Origin: an uncultured Planctomycetota bacterium
Lineage (GTDB): Bacteria > Planctomycetota > Planctomycetia > Isosphaerales > Isosphaeraceae
Assembly (NCBI GenBank): GCA_963823665.1
Contig: CAWGMQ010000003.1
Span: 128,001-192,000, forward strand
Length of the DNA stretch: 64,000 nucleotides
Direction: 5' to 3'
In this document: one piece after another, positions 1,320-64,000 of the stretch
How the letters are laid out: every line of letters begins with the position of its first letter
Numbering within the stretch: position 1 is the stretch's first letter
Notes under the pieces: generated by a model
What the model was told of the DNA's origin: nothing
The model's database searches: none
The model's input: the letters and a program-made list of their open reading frames with translations, nothing else
Program-made: the position numbers and the translations under genes

Positions 1320-1368
1320 TCCGGATCAGTGGGAGCCCTGGCGGAGCGATCCGCCAAGGCGACCCGGC
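1320..1368 (+). ncRNA. Group II intron 3' remnant (3' strand of DV + DVI)
   Basis: TCCGGATCAGTGGGAGCCCTGGCGGAGCGATCCGCCAAGGCGACCCGGC is nearly identical to 3036-3084; followed by exon GACATCC. Confidence 0.85.
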
Positions 1369-2351: not shown

Positions 2352-3084
2352 TTGCGTCAGGAAAAGCTCGAGAAAGGGGGAAGTGCCTCGAAACACAGAA
2401 ACCTTTCATCGCGACCCTGCGGGTTAACGAATCCCGCCCGGCAGAGCCTGGCCGGCAGCCGGAAGCAAGTCTTGCGTGGGGAGGGGTGACCCTCACTGCG
2501 AAGCGTAGACAGCGAGTCCACATGCCATGCTATCGAGCCCCGAAATACTCATCGTGGGAGCCTCCGTTGTAGACACAAGCGGGGGCCGTGTCGACACGCC
2601 GCAATGGCCTGGCGTGTTCGGTCCTGCCGGGGTCCAAGAACATGGCGCAGGGACGCGAGGGTTGCTCGGGAACCTGAGAGCCCCATCCGTCTCCACTGAC
2701 ATTTCCGGCTCGGGAACCGGAATACCAACTCCCCGGCCCACGACCCCGCGTCGGGTCGCTGGGAGCGAACAAGACGCAAGGGTGGTATCGCCAAGCGAAG
2801 GCAACGAAGTGCGGCGAAAGGGGCGGATGGGAGTCGGAGTGCTCCGTAGTAGCAGTGAAGCGGGGGAATGGGCCCTCCCAGACCCTGTGGAGCGAAGGGG
2901 GCACCGTGTCGTGGACTGGACGCCGGAACCACGCCGAGGGCATTGGACCTCAGAGCGCGTCACCGCGAGGCGACCAGATCGTGTGAGGGACAGCGACGCC
3001 GCGACATGACGAGCCGGATGCCTTAATTGGGCACGTCCGGATCAGTGGGAGCCCTGGCGGAGCGATCCGCCAGGGCGACCCGGC
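2352..3084 (+). ncRNA. ORF-less group II intron, apparently complete (733 nt)
   Basis: 5' TTGCG after GGGTGTCT; DV GAGCCGGATGCCTTAATTGGGCACGTCCGGATC at 3011-3043; DVI ending GACCCGGC; putative EBS1 AGACAC (2571-2576) complementary to exon GTGTCT; removal restores GGGTGTCT^GGCTTCCC. Confidence 0.85.
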
Positions 3085-3120: not shown

Positions 3121-3350
3121 GATTCCAGACGCCCATCTTTTGGTCACGGTCGACCGGATTCCATTCATTCGCGACTCGCACAATCGGCGCACAACCACGA
3201 GATTCCAGACACCCATCGTTTGGTCACGGTCCCCCGCATTCCATTCATTCGCGGCTCGCACGTTCGGCGCACAACCACGGCCTCTGGTCATTTCCAGCAC
3301 GCATCAGGCGAGTGTCCGACGCTCCGCAGACGGTGGGTGTCTGACATCCC
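3121..3350 (+). repeat. Two 80-bp tandem units starting GATTCCAGAC(G/A)CCCATC, overlapping an ~85-bp segment repeated at 11664-11750
   Basis: 3121-3200 vs 3201-3280; CGGCGCACAACCACGGCCTCTGGTCATTTCCAGCACGCA at 3265 and 11666. Confidence 0.85.
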
Positions 3351-10162: not shown

Positions 10163-10472
10163 TCGCGCCAAGAAGCTCGGAAAGGGAGGATCATCTTAAA
10201 TGTGAAACCTTTTAGTCGAACCCTGCGGGTATACAATCCCGTCCGGCAGAGCCTGGCCAGCAGCCGGAAGCCAGTCTTGTATGTGGGGAGGCGACTCTCA
10301 CTGCGAAGCGTAGACAGCGAGATCAAACGCTGTGCGATTGAGCCCCGAAATTTCCCTCTTTGTTCTGAGCCCTCGTCCTTGTCTGACGCGGGGGGCCGCG
10401 CCGGGCATTAGCGACACCTGGACCCACAAGCGTGCCCGGTCAGACCGGGGTCGAGGGACATGGCGAAGGGGG
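10163..10472 (+). ncRNA. 5' fragment (domain I) of a related group II intron
   Basis: Starts TCGCG after ATTCCAGACA; shares ACCCTGCGGGT, GGCAGAGCCTGGCC, CACTGCGAAGCGTAGACAGCGAG, GAGCCCCGAAAT with 2352-3084; putative EBS1 TGTCTG at 10380-10385. Confidence 0.8.
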
Positions 10473-18237: not shown

Positions 18238-18710
18238 CCGGGGCTTACGCGGGCTCGATCCCGGGGCTGACGCCGGCGGGCTATATGATGTCGCCCGTTT
18301 GGGGCTGGCGTGGCGGTGGGTGCCATTTCGAGGGACCCGGGGCTGACGCGGGCTCGATCTTACGCCGCCGGGCTTTATGATGTCGCCTCTTCGAGGCTGA
18401 CGTGCTGCGCGCGCCGATTCAGGGGCCCCTTACGCCGCCGGGCTATATGATGTCGCCTCTTCGAGGCTGACGTGCTGGCGCGCGCCGATTCAGGGGCCCC
18501 GGGGCTTACGCCGCCGGGCTTTATGATGTCGCCTCTTCGAGGCTGACGTGCTGGCGCGCGCCGATTCAGGGGCCCCGGGGCTTACGCCGCCGGGCTTTAT
18601 GATGTCGCCTCTTCGAGGCTGACGTGCTGGCGCGTGCTTTTCGGGGAACTTCGGGAAACCCGGGGCTTACGCCACCGGGCTATATGATGTTGCCGCTTAC
18701 GCGGCTTCGG
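18238..18710 (+). repeat. Tandem REP-like repeat, ~70-85 bp period, about 6 units
   Basis: TTACGCCGCCGGGCT(T/A)TATGATGTCGCCTCTTCGAGGCTGACGTGCTG at 18360, 18430, 18506, 18582; degenerate units at 18238-18350 and 18667. Confidence 0.9.
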
Positions 18711-44383: not shown

Positions 44384-44824
44384 TGCTCCGCGTTCTCGCC
44401 CCCGTTTGACGACAATGCAAATCGGCCTGAAAGGCCACAACAACACAGCCCAATGGCAACGCCTTGGGTTTCCGGTGCAACGCCGTGGGTTTCCGAGGCA
44501 CGCGCCCTGGGTATCCAGTCTCGCCCCGACTCCAGTGTCGGCGATCGAGATCCTGCTACATATATTATGCGACGGTTTTCCCGGATTTCACGATTTCGTC
44601 GACTAGAAAACTTGGAATTTTTTTCACGTCGTAACGGTTGCAACGACGAACTTGATCGAACCCCCCGGTTTGCGCACGATGCGGCTAAAGAGTCGGCAAA
44701 ACAGCGTCGCGATTCCCACATCCAGTTGGCCCGCTCCGACCAGCATGGCTCGCATTCGGCTTATCGCGATCGCGCCCATTCGCTAGCCTCCAAACTCACG
44801 AATTGACTTTTTTTTGAAAATCCG

Positions 44825-57307: not shown

Positions 57308-58933
57308 TGTCTTGGTTCACCGTGAAATGGAATTTCGTCCGATTGGCGTAAATGAATGGGGAACGGCATCGTGGCCTGGATGTCGCGGCATCGTGCCGCG
57401 AAGGTTTGTCGCATTGGTGCCAATCCCGGAGCTGTCGTGCTGCGATCGAGGAGAGCGCAGAGCCGAGGTATGCTCGGCTCTGGCTCCGGTCTTGGCCCCT
57501 GGCTCGGCGCTCGGGGTGCTCCTCAGCAGTACCCTATCCTCCGCCCAGGTCAACATCGTTTGTAGCTCGTCCGCGATCTTCACGCAACCTCTTGTGACCC
57601 GTGTCTAACTGTTGCTCGACGCTCGCGCGCCTCCTCCAGCTTGCGGTCACGCTCAGCGAAGATTTCTTTTTCCAGCCCGATCAACTTGTCGGCTGGGGTC
57701 AAATAACCTAACGCGCTATGCAACCGTATATTATTGTAGTGATCCACATATGATGCAATGTGACGTAGAGCCTCATCGAACGAAGACACCGCCGCTGGCC
57801 GTACGCACTCGCGTTTCAAACTGCCGTGCCAGCGCTCAAGTTTTCCGTTCGATTGCGGATAATACGGGCTCGTCCGAACGTGCGTTATGCCCGTCAGCCG
57901 GATGAATTCCTTGAAATCCCGGGCAATGAACTGCGGGCCATTGTCACTGATGATCCGTGGCTTTTCTCCTGGATGCCGCTCCAACGCCCGCTGGATGATT
58001 GTCTCGACTTCGCGCTCGGTCATGCTCTCACGAATCTCCCAGTGCACAATGTATCGGCTGCAACCGTCCAGCACGCTCGTCAGGTAGTAAAACGTCCCCG
58101 AGACGTTGATGTAAGAGATGTCCACATGCCAGTGTTCATGAGGCACCAGTGGTTGCACGAAGCCGGTTCCCTTCTTCGACGGTGAGAACCGCCTGCGATC
58201 GAGCCGGTTCGCTTGCTTGAGCACGCGATAGACGCTCGCTGGGCTGACGGCCACCACGTCGTCGTCGAGCATCATGAAGGTCAAGCGGCGATATCCTTCG
58301 AGAGGATGGCGATCGTGAAAATCGACGATGGCTCGTTTTTCCCAGTCCTCGAGCCACCAATCGCGCGGGACCTTGCCGTTGTGCTCGTTGACTTTGCCGT
58401 AACGGTGCTTCCAGTCGTGGAACTTACTTGTGCCCAGGCCGAGCCAACTCAGGAGCTGACGAGCCGGAAGCTCCGTGCGGTCGACCCAATGCTTGACGTA
58501 GTCGACGACCTGGTCACGCGTGTCGTGGGGAACCCAGGCTCCGTTCAGAGTTCCCCAAGTTCTTTTTTTAGCTGGACGTGCTCCTGCATCAGCTCGGCGA
58601 TGACCTCGTTCTTCTTGACGAGACTGGATTGGAGCCGCTCGACGAGCTTCGCTTGAAGCCGCTCTGCGCGGGGCGGACGGCCTGCTGCGCGCTCCAAAGC
58701 ATGCTCGGCCTGGTCGAGTACCTGCTTAATCCAGTTGTGGATCTGGCTGGGTTGAAGGCCGAACTCATCGGCCAAGTTGGAAACAGGCTCTTTGCCACTG
58801 ATATGGCGACGGACGATTTGAGCCTTTTGCGGCGCTGAGAAATGCCGGCGCGACTGTCTCATGGAACTCACCTCCGATAGGGTTAATTATAACCCAACCG
58901 GCGCGACATTCTATTTTCAGGTGAGGCAGGACA
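57308..58933 (-). mobile_element. IS3-family insertion sequence
   Basis: IRs TGTCTTGGTTCACCGTGAAATGGAA / TGTCCTGCCTCACCTGAAAATAGAA; no target duplication seen. Confidence 0.92.
57580..58862 (-). CDS. IS3 transposase OrfA/OrfB (-1 frameshift at A7G, 58562-58569)
   Basis: OrfA HTH 58545..58862; OrfB WHVDISY, SDNGPQF, PQSNGKLERW, RLHSALGY. Confidence 0.92.
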
Positions 58934-59651: not shown

Positions 59652-60608
59652 TTAATCGAACAGCATTTTTTCGCCATTCGTTGAATGCTTACGTGATTTG
59701 CGGCGGGCGGGGATAACCGCCGGGGCATCCTGTGCCTGTTTTTCATGTGGTTCAAACCGGAACCGGCTGGCTTCCAGGTATTCGGCGTTGTGCTCGACGG
59801 CAATCCAGTTGCGCGCCAGCTCCTCGCACGCCTCACCGGTCGTGTTGCTGCCGGCGAACGGGTCGATCACCAGGTCGCCCGGATCAGTCAGAAACCGGAT
59901 GAAAAAATGCGGTAGCTGAATCGGGAAGCGTGCTGGATGCGGCTTCACGCCGGATTCGTTGCACCGCTCAAGGTAATGGCCGTTTGCGTCGTTGTTGCCG
60001 CAGATGATGATGTTGCCCGGTATCGACCCGCCGTTGTCCTTGAATTTCTTGGTGATGATGTGGCCCGACGGCCTGACCTTCGGCTTGTAGCCCTTAATCA
60101 GCAGCCGCTTCATGTCCGGGCTGTATTCCTGGAGAACCTTCTGGTTATCCGCCTTTGGCCACGGCGTTTTCGATAACCACCAGACGCATTCGACGGAATC
60201 CTTGACGCGAATCTTGCGCACGTTAACCCATTCGGCAGGCGATGGCAGCTTGCCTGGGTTGTACCAGAAGAATTCCTGCGCCAGATGGAATCCGGCCTGC
60301 CGGCACAGGGCGATCAGCAGCTCAAAATGATAAAGCGACCGCGTAGGCTTCCCCGGCGTCCACGCGCCGCCAATGTCGATCACGGCGCTGCCGTCGTCGG
60401 CAAGGATACGATGGATTTCGCGGGCGAACGGCAGGAACCATTGGATGTAATCACCCTGGTTGGCGTTGCCGTATTCCTTTTTGAAATGCAGGGCATAAGG
60501 CGGCGAGGTCATCATCAGATTGACGCTGCCGCCGGGCATGCCCTTCATAAATTCCAGCGAATCCGTGACGTAAGCTTTGCCGAGGTCCGTCTTGTAAAGC
60601 GGGGTCAT
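59652..60608 (-). CDS. Beta-class DNA methyltransferase (N4-cytosine type, PvuII-like)
   Basis: [22 protein letters not shown]. Confidence 0.92.
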
Positions 60609-61177: not shown

Positions 61178-61493
61178 CCTTGCCTCCTGGCAACGTCGTC
61201 CCTGACGCTGGCAGTACGGAACAAACGATCATTGTAACGGGCAAATCTCCCAATCGCTAGGATCGGCTTTTCGGGTGCCTTGGAATTCCTCTTTTTCCTA
61301 AAGAAATCCCGTCCCGCGTGCGCCCAGAACGCTTAGCGGGACGCTGGCCACTGCCATACGCTTTCCTGCAACCGGCGTTGCGGCGGCTTTTCACCTAAGC
61401 GTTGCTCGATCCTGCCCCATTTCTGATTGGGCGTTCCGGCTGCGCCGCCGCGGGGATGTCGCCGGGTCGCCTTGGGGGATCGCTCCCCCAAGG

Positions 61494-63913
61494 GCCGGGT
61501 AAGGAGGTGACGTTACCGCCACCCCCTCCCCTCAGAACTGCACGTGAAAGTTTCCCTTCATGCAGCTCAAGCCTTCACGAACGCCCCTCGCAGGACGCGG
61601 CCGCTTTCGTCAGTCGTTCTTGGACATGGATCTGCCGATGACAGTTGGCATGCAACAACTCCAGGTTGTCGGCTGTGCCAGAACCGCCCCGGCTGCGCCA
61701 GATGCGATGGTGGAGATGCAAGTCTTCCTCTGCGATCCGCAGCGGTTGACCACAGACCACGCATCGTCCCTCTTGTTCCTTCCATAAGTATTCGATCCGA
61801 CCCCGACCTGCCAGCGTTTGGCTCAGTTGCCAACCCAGTCGTGCTTCCAGGTACAGTTCCCACTTCGGATCGTAGGGATTCACGTCGCTCCGGATCTTCA
61901 CATAACGAATGATCTTCACTTTGGCTGCTTCCATCAACTGGATCGGCCGGCCTTGGCCTTTCTGGTCAAACAGCGTACCGGTGAAGACCCAGTGGCGGTA
62001 ACCGTCTTGCTGGAAGTATTTCTCCTTGATCCACCTCCGGCCTTTGTTCTGGTGCCGTCGTCGACACCAACGCCACAATTTCTGGAAAATCCGGTGATCC
62101 ACGTACGTAAAAGTGCGCTTGCTCGCCGCGTAACGGTGGTACATGGTCCAGCCCTTGATCTGCTGATTCAAACGCCAGATCATCTCTCCTGCCGTTAGGC
62201 TGCCCGAGCCGTCGATCGTTTCCTGTATCTTGTTCAAGAACGTCTTCACGTTTCGCAAGGACGGCTTGGTGAACACCTTGCCGCAGCGATAGCGTCGCAC
62301 ATTCTGCCCCAAGAAATCGAAGCCATCCTCCACATGCGTGATCTGGGTTTTCTCGTGGGAAAGTTCCAAGCCGCGTTCCTTCAAGAAATGAGCCACGAGA
62401 GGTTGCACTTGGTCACGGAGGAGTTCCTTTGAGATGCCCGTGATCAAGAAGTCATCCGCATAGCGGACCAGGTGGACTTTAAACTTCCGTTGTCGCCCGT
62501 GCTTCTCGGCGAACTGTTCCGCCAACAGCCGTTGCAGTCCATCCAGAGTCCAATTCGCCAGGACGGGTGAAATGATCCCGCCTTGAGGTGTTCCTTCCGT
62601 GGTGGCGAACCAGGCGTGCTTCTCCAGGAAACCCACTTTCAGCCATTGCCCGAGCAACTGCCGGTCCATGGGGACGTGCGTCAAGAGCCAGTCATGACTG
62701 ATGCGATCAAAGCAAGCTTTGATGTCCCCTTCGAGAATCCATGCTGGACCGCTCCGATTACCCAAGACAATATGAGATTGTTCCAGGGCGTCGGCACAAC
62801 GACGTTCCAGCCGAAAGCCATAGGAATGGCCGTCGGCTCGAGATTCCGCAATGGGATCGAGGCCTAGCAAGTATAATGCCTGCATGGCTCGATCTGACAT
62901 GGTGGGAATTCCGAGAGGACGTCGCTTGCCGTTGCTTTTGGGAATGTACACCCGGCGGAGCGGTTGCGGTTGGTAACCGTGCCGACGCAGAGTGCTGAAA
63001 GCAGCCGACTTGGCTTCCGGTGTGTTCCAGAGAACTCCGTCCACACCGGGAGTCTTCGCACCCGAATTACTGATGACTCGCAAAATGGCCAGGGCCCGGC
63101 CACTGAACGAGTGCGTGAGCAGATAAACCAGAGCCTTGACCTTATTCCATCTGCCCTCCGCAACAGCCTTCACGATACGCGCCTGGAGCCGACGGACTGT
63201 GCGCCAGACTTTCTTCCATTCGATGGAGTGCCAGTCGGGCGTAAGCTCGGGAGCCGCACCAGCAAGCATTTCTGCCGCCGACATATCTGCTTGTCTCCCT
63301 GAGTCGGTTGGCCAAGGTTCTCTCGTGACGGAACACCTGAGGGAAGTCGGCACCGCTTTCGCGGTGAGGGGATGTCGTCCGTGGGAGGACTCACCCTCTA
63401 TCCGATCGACTACCGAACGGCATTGGCTTGCTCCCTCATCCTCCACCCGCCGCCCCATCGGCGACGCCTTACGACGGTCCTACCCCGAAGGGAGGGCGAC
63501 GGGCTTACCACGTTCCACGGATGAATCACGGATGGTTTAGGCTCTGCCTCTCCGCCGGTGGCTCGGATGACGACGACAGGGGATGGGAAATCCCACTGTA
63601 CCTGGCCACGTACCTTTTTGGTTCAAGCCTCTCAGCGCCTTTGGCTTGTTGGATCTCACGACGTTTATCGGCAGTTCACCTGGATTAGCCATGCCATCCA
63701 CCCCTGGCCCCCGACCGCATTGGCGTTCGCAGTCGCCGGATTCCCTCACGGGATATCCAACCACCCGAAGGTGAGGTTACGTTGTCCCAAGAGCTTCGCA
63801 CGGTCGGATTGCTCCGGCCGCACGTCCTGGTAGGGTTCCGGTGGTCGTACATCGGGTTATGTCCTGGTTGCAAATCCAGTCATAACAGACTCATCCGCAG
63901 CTTCGTTTCGCGA
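61494..63913 (-). mobile_element. Inner group II intron (IIB, chloroplast-like class), complete
   Basis: 5' TCGCGAAACGAAG; DV GAGCTGCATGAAGGGAAACTTTCACGTGCAGTTC; DVI ending TTACCCGGC. Confidence 0.9.
61575..63284 (-). CDS. ltrA: Group II intron reverse transcriptase/maturase with HNH endonuclease
   Basis: TPGVDG, RPLGIPT, GTPQGG, RYADDF, GFDFLG, CVVC...HLHH...[10 protein letters not shown]. Confidence 0.96.
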
Positions 63914-64000
63914 CTCCCACAGATCCGGGCTTGCCCAATTCAGGCACCCGGCTCGTCATGTCACTTGTTCGCTACGAGACGGCATACCGAGTGGATCGCG

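Follow-up and report, generated by a model that had tools for sequence, protein, structure and literature searches.

The 64,000-nucleotide stretch of DNA analysed here (hereafter the window; positions 128,001 to 192,000 of contig CAWGMQ010000003.1 from an uncultured Planctomycetota bacterium) has near its end one group II intron lying inside another, an arrangement known as a twintron. The locus raises the question of whether the inner intron, which encodes a reverse transcriptase (RT) with an HNH domain, is aimed at the place that it occupies, as an initial annotation made from the letters alone had proposed, and, if so, how it recognises that place and how it spreads. Our results suggest that it is aimed. 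The inner intron is very probably a mobile element that spreads by retrohoming and whose exon-binding sites (EBSs) are fixed on a site spanning domain V (DV), the linker J5/6 and domain VI (DVI) of another intron family. This answer is built on the anatomy of the two introns, the distribution of their copies, the complementarity and covariation between EBSs and intron-binding sites (IBSs), and the fold of the outer DV and DVI, all of which were observed directly.

The inner intron

The inner intron and its principal parts are as follows.

61494..63913, minus strand: inner group II intron, 2420 nt, 5' end UCGCG, 3' end ACCCGGC
61494..61570, minus strand: domains V and VI of the inner intron (RF00029, 63.4 bits against a gathering score of 40, model positions 1-77 of 77)
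61575..63284, minus strand: intron-encoded protein of 569 aa, combining RT, maturase (X) and HNH domains (Pfam RVT_N, RVT_1, GIIM and HNH)

Read on the minus strand, the element opens with UCGCGAAAC (63913) and closes with CCUUACCCGGC (61494), boundaries that were set by comparison of flanks together with the covariation of EBS3 and the first base of the 3' exon (+1). It has the DV and DVI, the D1-D4 body, the RT-maturase and the EBS-exon pairing of a mobile group II intron. The body is represented by a match to RF02012 (group II D1-D4-7) at 63707-63856 on the minus strand (105.5 bits, gathering score 34, model positions 1-151 of 151), and a bulged A, as read from the sequence, lies in its DVI 7 nt from the intron 3' end. 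The protein scores 342.6 bits against the group II RT/maturase model TIGR04416 of NCBIfam, for which the cut-off is 300, and among solved structures chain C of PDB entries 6ME0 and 6MEC is the nearest to it (E 7e-181, residues 3-556). In the available sections of the source, these structures are of the Th.e.I3/T.el4h intron of T. elongatus, a IIB1 intron with a chloroplast-like-1 (CL1) RT (PMC8643678). Because the protein is nearest to the T.el4h maturase, and because EBS2a and EBS3 of the inner intron behave like those of IIB introns, the element would be classed as a mobile, autonomous group II intron of the IIB1/CL1 kind, with splicing and retrohoming predicted. Indirect signs of mobility are seven identical copies, the presence of 5'-truncated copies and an intact open reading frame (ORF).

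The outer intron family

The host of the inner intron is represented in the window by the following features.

63922..63954, minus strand: domain V of the outer intron (from alignment A1 and pair counts; homologous to 3011-3043)
61461..61493, minus strand: the rest of the outer DVI, comprising the upper helix, the branch A and the 3' end GACCCGGC (from A1; sequence past 61461 differs between loci)
63955..64000, minus strand: more of the outer intron, of the ORF-containing kind, which the end of the window cuts off
2352..3084, plus strand: ORF-less intron of the outer family, 733 nt, 5' end UUGCG, 3' end GACCCGGC (RF02005, D1-D4-6, 139.5 bits)

At the twintron locus the outer intron is of the ORF-containing kind; it comprises 61461-61493 and the sequence from 63914 to beyond 64000, with its 5' end about 1.9 kb past the window. 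The 5' flank of the inner intron runs ...GAGCCGGGTGCC...GCCCGGATCTGTGGGAG and ends in GGATCTGTGGGAG, and the 3' flank, CCTTGGGGGAGCGATCCCCCAAGGCGACCCGGC, starts with CCTTGGGGG and ends in GACCCGGC at 61461. Both flanks are collinear with 3011-3084 of the window, so that the earlier claim that deletion of 61494-63913 restores an outer DV-DVI homologous to that segment is borne out.

The boundaries of the outer introns come from comparison of more than 20 copies, in which similarity starts and stops at the same bases. The genome holds 45 matches to the 733-nt element, among them 13 ORF-less copies that are near-identical, six of about 2 kb and members that are only about 74% alike; RF02005 scores 138-140 bits on outer copies. 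The six 2-kb copies carry a 1372-nt insert in domain IV that encodes a 434-aa RT, which reaches 330.2 bits against TIGR04416 and has no HNH domain. Identity between the inner and outer proteins is 34% over 228 residues, which makes them two distinct families. The host of the twintron is thus itself a group II intron, of an endonuclease-less family.

In the Rfam scan RF00029 gave no match to the outer DV-DVI even at E <= 1, and covariation in an alignment (A1) of 12 unoccupied outer copies from 5 genomes was used instead to test the outer fold. Pairing was found in 93.2% of cells, with compensatory changes in 11 of 27 pairs; none of 500 shuffles was as good, and slid controls reached at most 54% pairing. 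One peculiarity of the outer DV is that the G of the AGC triad stands opposite A, not the usual U, in 11 of the 12 outers (A1 columns 3 and 33); the sole exception, a GGCTC variant, has a G-C pair at these columns.

The outer family has a repeated homing site of its own, GGTGGGTGTCT followed by G-N-C-(A/T)-TCC, seen in the window and at L014, L019 and L023; an uninterrupted copy lies at 3332-3349 of the window. Outer introns often stand in tandem, 34-80 nt apart, as at C10:1458594 and 1459351, and an ORF-less outer lies just upstream of the twintron. A further RF02005 match at 10233-10460 (103.9 bits) was rejected as a usable outer copy, having no DV-DVI within 3.4 kb downstream, and is probably a truncated or interrupted member of the family.

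Copies of the inner intron and occupancy of the site

The genome is a metagenome-assembled one of 16.46 Mb in 12 contigs, estimated as 91.9% complete. It contains seven full copies of the inner intron, identical at 2420/2420 positions, and one 182-nt 3' fragment (L008). All eight lie at one and the same position of the outer intron, in at least three diverged outer subtypes, and this distribution, together with the compensatory changes in the outer fold, bears out the proposal of a twintron aimed at the DV/DVI of another family. Of the full copies, four lie in ORF-containing outers, two in outers of the 74% type and one in an ORF-less variant, and the fragment precedes a further DVI variant. 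Each of the seven full copies is preceded by GGATCTGTGGGA(G/A) and followed by CC and then the rest of the outer DVI; beyond the outer 3' end the loci share no sequence relation. Removal of the inner intron restores the outer in all seven cases, the flanks being collinear with unoccupied outers, including the otherwise near-identical empty L027.

The site itself is rare. The 13-mer GGATCTGTGGGAR occurs 9 times in the 16.46 Mb, as against 0 times for the reversed control, and 7 of the 9 are occupied; all seven full inner copies adjoin it. The link between this 13-mer and insertion of the inner intron is far above chance. When the +1 C is included and one mismatch is allowed, the resulting 14-mer has 33 matches (8 for the control), made up of 2 exact and empty sites, the 7 occupied sites and 24 others. 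None of these 24 one-mismatch sites is occupied, and 14 of them read GGATCAGTGGGAGC. The near-matching empty sites reported earlier, GGATCAGTGGGAG at 1323-1335 and 3039-3051, do exist: the second lies in the ORF-less outer at 2352-3084 and differs by one base, and the first belongs to a further feature.

1323..1368, plus strand: lone outer DVI fragment with an empty one-mismatch site (from sequence match)

This fragment and another lone DVI fragment at C4:1201361 (L069) start at the identical base (-13, GGATC...); in the window an inverted partial copy, CCACAGATCC, stands before the fragment, and the two make a near-palindrome.

The copies also bear on the possibility that the twintron moves whole, such that an outer intron carrying the inner one retrohomes to new outer targets and few insertions of the inner intron were needed. 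Two pairs of near-identical occupied outers at different loci (L001/L006 and L004/L007) would fit such composite movement, as would the RT frameshift shared by L001 and L006, and composite mobility is named as a possible route in the part of the literature available to us (PMC2882425). However, comparison of the L001 and L004 outers shows 9 differences in 1500 aligned positions, from which about 14 differences between inner copies would be predicted, and 0 were observed in 2420 nt. The inner intron also occurs in three outer subtypes and beside a fourth DVI variant (L008), unoccupied sister outers exist, and, with the outer DVI split beside the branch site, an unspliced composite would be unlikely to splice. 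Identity of the inner copies in diverged outers points to recent separate insertions, and movement of the composite is a very improbable explanation.

Guide sequences

A single-sequence minimum free energy fold of domains I-III of the inner intron was no better than shuffles (z -0.82) and could not place the EBSs, which were located by comparative alignment in its place. Inner-type introns of 75-90% identity were found in six of 41 genomes searched from the same family and class, and an alignment of domain I was made from the inner intron and 10 relatives, 11 introns in all. It places the guide sequences as follows.

63584..63589, minus strand: EBS1, UUCCCA, positions 2-7 of a 7-nt hairpin loop, pairing with exon positions -6..-1 (from covariation)
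63651..63657, minus strand: EBS2, GAUCC (63651-63655), a spacer A (63656) and EBS2a, G (63657), pairing with -13..-9 and -14
63550, minus strand: EBS3, G at intron position 364, pairing with the +1 C of the 3' exon (from covariation)

The initial annotation had singled out TTCCCA and AGATCC as the candidate guides, and these are indeed the minus strands of 63584-63589 and 63651-63656. For TTCCCA the assignment as EBS1, pairing with -6..-1 through one G-U, is upheld: the homologous loop forms 6 of 6 pairs (Watson-Crick or G-U) with each intron's own exon in 10 of the 11 introns and 4 of 6 in the remaining one (L052). For AGATCC the placement as EBS2 was right and five base pairs (-13..-9) are conserved, 5 of 5 in nine introns and 4 of 5 in the other two. 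The sixth pair, between the U at -8 and A, falls away, as the spacer is A in 11 of 11 introns though any of T, C, A and G may occur at -8. Two positions upstream of the 5-nt EBS2 lies a base that is Watson-Crick complementary to -14 in 10 of 11 introns, and this corresponds to the EBS2a-IBS2a pairing rule of IIB1 and IIB2 introns as given in the sections available (PMC8643678). The EBS3 column is complementary to +1 in all nine introns for which the 3' exon is known, the remaining columns of domain I all fall short of 8, and the 3' boundary of the inner intron is thereby fixed. The inner intron itself has 5 Watson-Crick pairs and 1 G-U pair of 6 in EBS1, 5 of 5 in EBS2, a Watson-Crick EBS2a and an EBS3 G facing the +1 C; an A at -1 in three occupied sites makes the EBS1 helix fully Watson-Crick.

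It had been held at the outset that homologous introns in unrelated targets would speak against a dedicated site. Such homologues do exist, as the targets of the 75-90% identical relatives are unrelated in sequence. Nevertheless, since the different EBSs of these relatives match their own exons, the reading is not refuted by them. The 5' ends of the relatives are UUGCG, GUGCG or AUGCG and their 3' ends ACCCGGC or ACCCGAC. A sister group with 77-83% protein identity to the inner intron has a 3' exon that starts with ACGCACA at eight loci in two metagenome-assembled genome records (L078-L080, L089-L092 and L099), which suggests another multi-copy target.

Position of the target in the outer RNA

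The exon side of these pairings was placed on the outer alignment.

63914..63927, minus strand: target (IBS2a, IBS2 and IBS1), in the 3' strand of the outer DV, in J5/6 and in the 5 nt that open DVI

The 3' strand region of DV ends with the six bases of IBS2a and IBS2 (A1 columns 30-35). Positions -8 and -7 belong to the linker, whose last base is also the first of IBS1; IBS1 then extends over GGGAG of DVI. The inner intron is inserted between A1 columns 43 and 44, inside the helix of DVI, and the internal loop with the branch A lies immediately below this point. The earlier placement of the target at the DV-DVI junction was therefore correct as to the region and inexact as to the point, which is 5 nt into DVI. 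Judged from these complementarities, the inner EBSs appear to be fixed on a 15-nt site with C at -14, GGAUC at -13..-9, UGGGAG/A at -6..-1 and C at +1. With the helix of the outer DVI interrupted immediately above the branch adenosine, the outer ribozyme is plausibly inactive until the inner intron has been excised.

The base at -8 lies outside the guide pairings and differs between outer subfamilies. GGATCTGTGGGAG, the end of the 5' flank at the twintron, is also found in unoccupied outers of G003, G014 and G022, from which it follows that the ORF-less subfamily has a derived A at -8. That this A protects the abundant ORF-less outers, as the mismatch in the empty sites may hint, is only a correlation.

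The arrangement in other genomes and in RNA libraries

A protein-guided scan with one genome per species gave 66 loci; the 3' end of the intron could be placed in 47 of them and the flank read in 46. An outer-type DVI in the same register follows the intron at four of the 46 (L071, L097, L118 and L128), and at the other 42 the intron is not in an outer DVI. L071 has 98% protein identity, both junctions and the 5' end UUGCG; L097, L118 and L128 are 5'-truncated copies, seen at the 3' junction. A further candidate with an outer-like 3' flank, L042, was rejected, as its 5' flank is not DV-like. Several copies thus occupy one conserved site of diverged hosts, eight of eight in this genome and four loci elsewhere. 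The 5'-truncated copies (these three and L008) fit aborted reverse transcription.

The stretch is partly present in soil and peat metagenomes (public runs), and contigs of three soil RNA libraries hold many pieces of related introns at 90-99% identity. In related copies, one such contig (X15 record 16) crosses the 5' junction and another (X17 record 25) crosses the 3' junction and continues up to the outer 3' end; these contigs show that the arrangement is present elsewhere.

These records bear on whether the arrangement could be an artefact of repeat collapse or consensus polishing. The genome was assembled from a metagenome, in 12 contigs and at 91.9% completeness, the inner copies are 100% identical and the outer RT genes contain 1-nt indels, all of which such an artefact could produce. 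Against this, the seven loci have distinct flanks and lie on four contigs, the same junctions are present in the independent public genome record L071, and the 5' and 3' junctions are each seen in an RNA library. We regard an assembly artefact as scarcely credible.

How the inner intron spreads

By analogy with EcI5 and T.el4h, movement of the inner intron would involve reverse splicing into DNA, nicking by HNH and target-primed reverse transcription. Once excised, the lariat and its protein would pair with the DNA site via EBS2a, EBS2, EBS1 and EBS3, and reverse splicing would take place between the G or A at -1 and the C at +1. The HNH domain would then nick the opposite strand, and target-primed reverse transcription would copy the intron in. 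As the outer family is multi-copy and the site is conserved across genera, the family may serve the inner intron as a renewable and harmless landing pad. Any cost that the inner intron has for the outer one is something that we infer.

A number of observations weigh against this account of a dedicated, retrohoming intron. Some concern the flanks. At L002 and L003 (C8) the DVI hairpin 3' of the inner intron is identical to that of the ORF-containing outers, with upstream parts of other subtypes, and the outers of L003 and L005 (C6) are alike at 670 of 759 positions overall, yet show no difference over the ~160 nt leading up to the inner intron. Such patterns, along with the perfect homogeneity of the inner copies, would be expected if the inner intron had spread mainly at the DNA level, by ectopic gene conversion or by double-strand-break repair between homologous outers. 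However, outers that are merely 74% alike have junctions that agree to the nucleotide, subtype-specific bases persist in the 5' flanks right to the junction, 5'-truncated copies are typical of reverse transcription, the guide sequences fit the site and a 98% relative occupies the same site in another genome. Spread mainly at the DNA level is therefore unlikely. A degree of spread or homogenisation through DNA recombination is nonetheless likely, and the patterns at L002/L003 and L003/L005 suggest flank co-conversion or ectopic gene conversion besides retrohoming. The identity of the copies could in part also result from polishing of repeats in the metagenome assembly.

Other observations on this side concern the elements and their sites. 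Two perfect sites are empty: that at C7:960479, where the ORF-containing outer is intact, and that of the lone DVI fragment at C4:1201361. The 5' end of the inner intron is UCGCG in all seven copies and departs from the GUGYG that is expected of a group II intron. Position 2 is U in L071 and in one RNA-library contig, and the first base varies anyway among the relatives, so that UCGCG is best taken as a one-base variant. The RT gene of the outer intron has 1-nt frameshifts in three of the four occupied ORF-containing outers (L023, L025 and L026), whereas it reads through in both unoccupied ones (L027 is intact); between L024 (unoccupied) and L028 (occupied) the outer RT differs only near the C-terminus. 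These frameshifts may reflect decay of disabled hosts or long-read error. Finally, the contigs of the three soil RNA libraries contained no clean ligated-exon or lariat joint, only unspliced-type junctions from related copies. The joints listed in these contigs have sides of at most 30 nt, which is too short to interpret, and a ligated-outer joint in RNA would be ambiguous because the empty outer exists as DNA.

The same observations might be drawn together into an arms race of a parasite on a parasite. The inner intron would disable outers through their branch-site domain, at a stretch that the outer cannot easily change (it is kept in at least four genomes). The 13 near-identical ORF-less outers, all unoccupied, would have escaped through the derived A at -8, a C at +7 or both, positions that the protein of the inner intron would read and its RNA would not, and the transfer of the DVI hairpin at L002/L003 would be a by-product of homing. 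This scenario is a tentative one, and we consider it rather doubtful.

Comparison with known twintrons

Homing of introns into introns is rare and already known; what differs here is a target in the DV/J5-6/DVI of another family. The published accounts compared below were available to us in part, and the likenesses and differences apply to the portions available. In T. elongatus, ORF-less TeI3/F3 introns lie inside TeI4/F1 introns, a case of group II introns homing into group II introns, and the argument for separate insertions was likewise made from identical inner and diverged outer copies (PMC2882425). The present system resembles this one in its identical inner copies and diverged outers and in having ORF-less beside ORF-containing forms, and the inner protein is a close relative of the T.el4h maturase. 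The T. elongatus inner intron, however, is ORF-less and related to its host, and lies in domain IV between two start codons, where it need not disable the ribozyme. Here the inner intron is an autonomous RT-HNH element at a DV/J5-6/DVI site, and the host belongs to another, endonuclease-less family with 34% RT identity and a different Rfam D1-D4 model.

In Methanosarcina acetivorans the homing site reportedly lies within the intron ORF. Nested group II introns that home into group II introns are described for this archaeon in a review (PMC4424553). As there, homing into introns is repeated and site-specific and takes place without host genes, and the outer is a perpetual homing site. The M. 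acetivorans introns are nested up to five deep in related hosts, whereas no nesting beyond two levels was seen here. The twintron of Trichodesmium erythraeum has its inner intron in domain I, and sequential splicing was shown (PMC4649490). Like ours it is a bacterial twintron with an ORF in each intron, and its introns are of IIB type, as ours would be; unlike ours it occupies one locus, in a protein-coding setting, whereas the present lineage is multi-copy at a conserved site.

In the plastid twintrons of euglenoids, inner introns interrupt functionally needed parts of the outer and are removed first (PMC4424553, PMC3534033, PMC5572947), and in one case three nt separate the internal intron from the external 3' splice site (PMC5572947). 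The present case is similar in that an inner intron can interrupt a needed outer part. The euglenoid twintrons are organellar, degenerate, mostly immobile and located in genes, and EBS-programmed multi-copy homing is not described for them in the portions available. Outer introns of the 'zombie' twintrons of plant mitochondria can splice independently of the inner (PMC7049729), and this is a caveat for the view that the inner intron must splice first. The zombie inner intron is dead and, at the one site stated, lies in domain IV, where it is structurally irrelevant; the inner intron described here looks intact and splits DVI.

With regard to target choice, the inner intron and 9 of the 10 aligned relatives obey the EBS2a-IBS2a rule of EcI5 and Th.e.I3 (PMC8643678). 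Recognition is the same in principle, and the DNA target here is the catalytic tail of another intron. In the open full-text literature on twintrons and group II introns, as far as it was available and with subscription literature outside the coverage, we found no bacterial lineage whose target is the DV/DVI of another intron family. Our results leave the general view of group II intron biology as it was. They show, nonetheless, that many natural sites, both occupied and unoccupied, allow a IIB1-type intron's choice of target to be read directly, and that a conserved catalytic segment of one retroelement can serve another as a stable homing site. The ribonucleoprotein of the inner intron, set against outer-site variants at -8 and +7, would make a simple test system for positions read by RNA and by protein, and for how one intron may hold another in check.

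Other features of the window

Close to the twintron lie an integrase of insertion-sequence type with rve domains and an N6/N4 DNA methylase (57580-58284 and 59652-60608, both on the minus strand), and the region around the twintron looks rich in mobile elements. Farther away are matches to an Acido-Lenti-1-like RNA, seven at 18260-18706 on the plus strand and one at 44423-44468 on the minus strand; all are just under the gathering score, the best two reaching 35.3 bits against 37.

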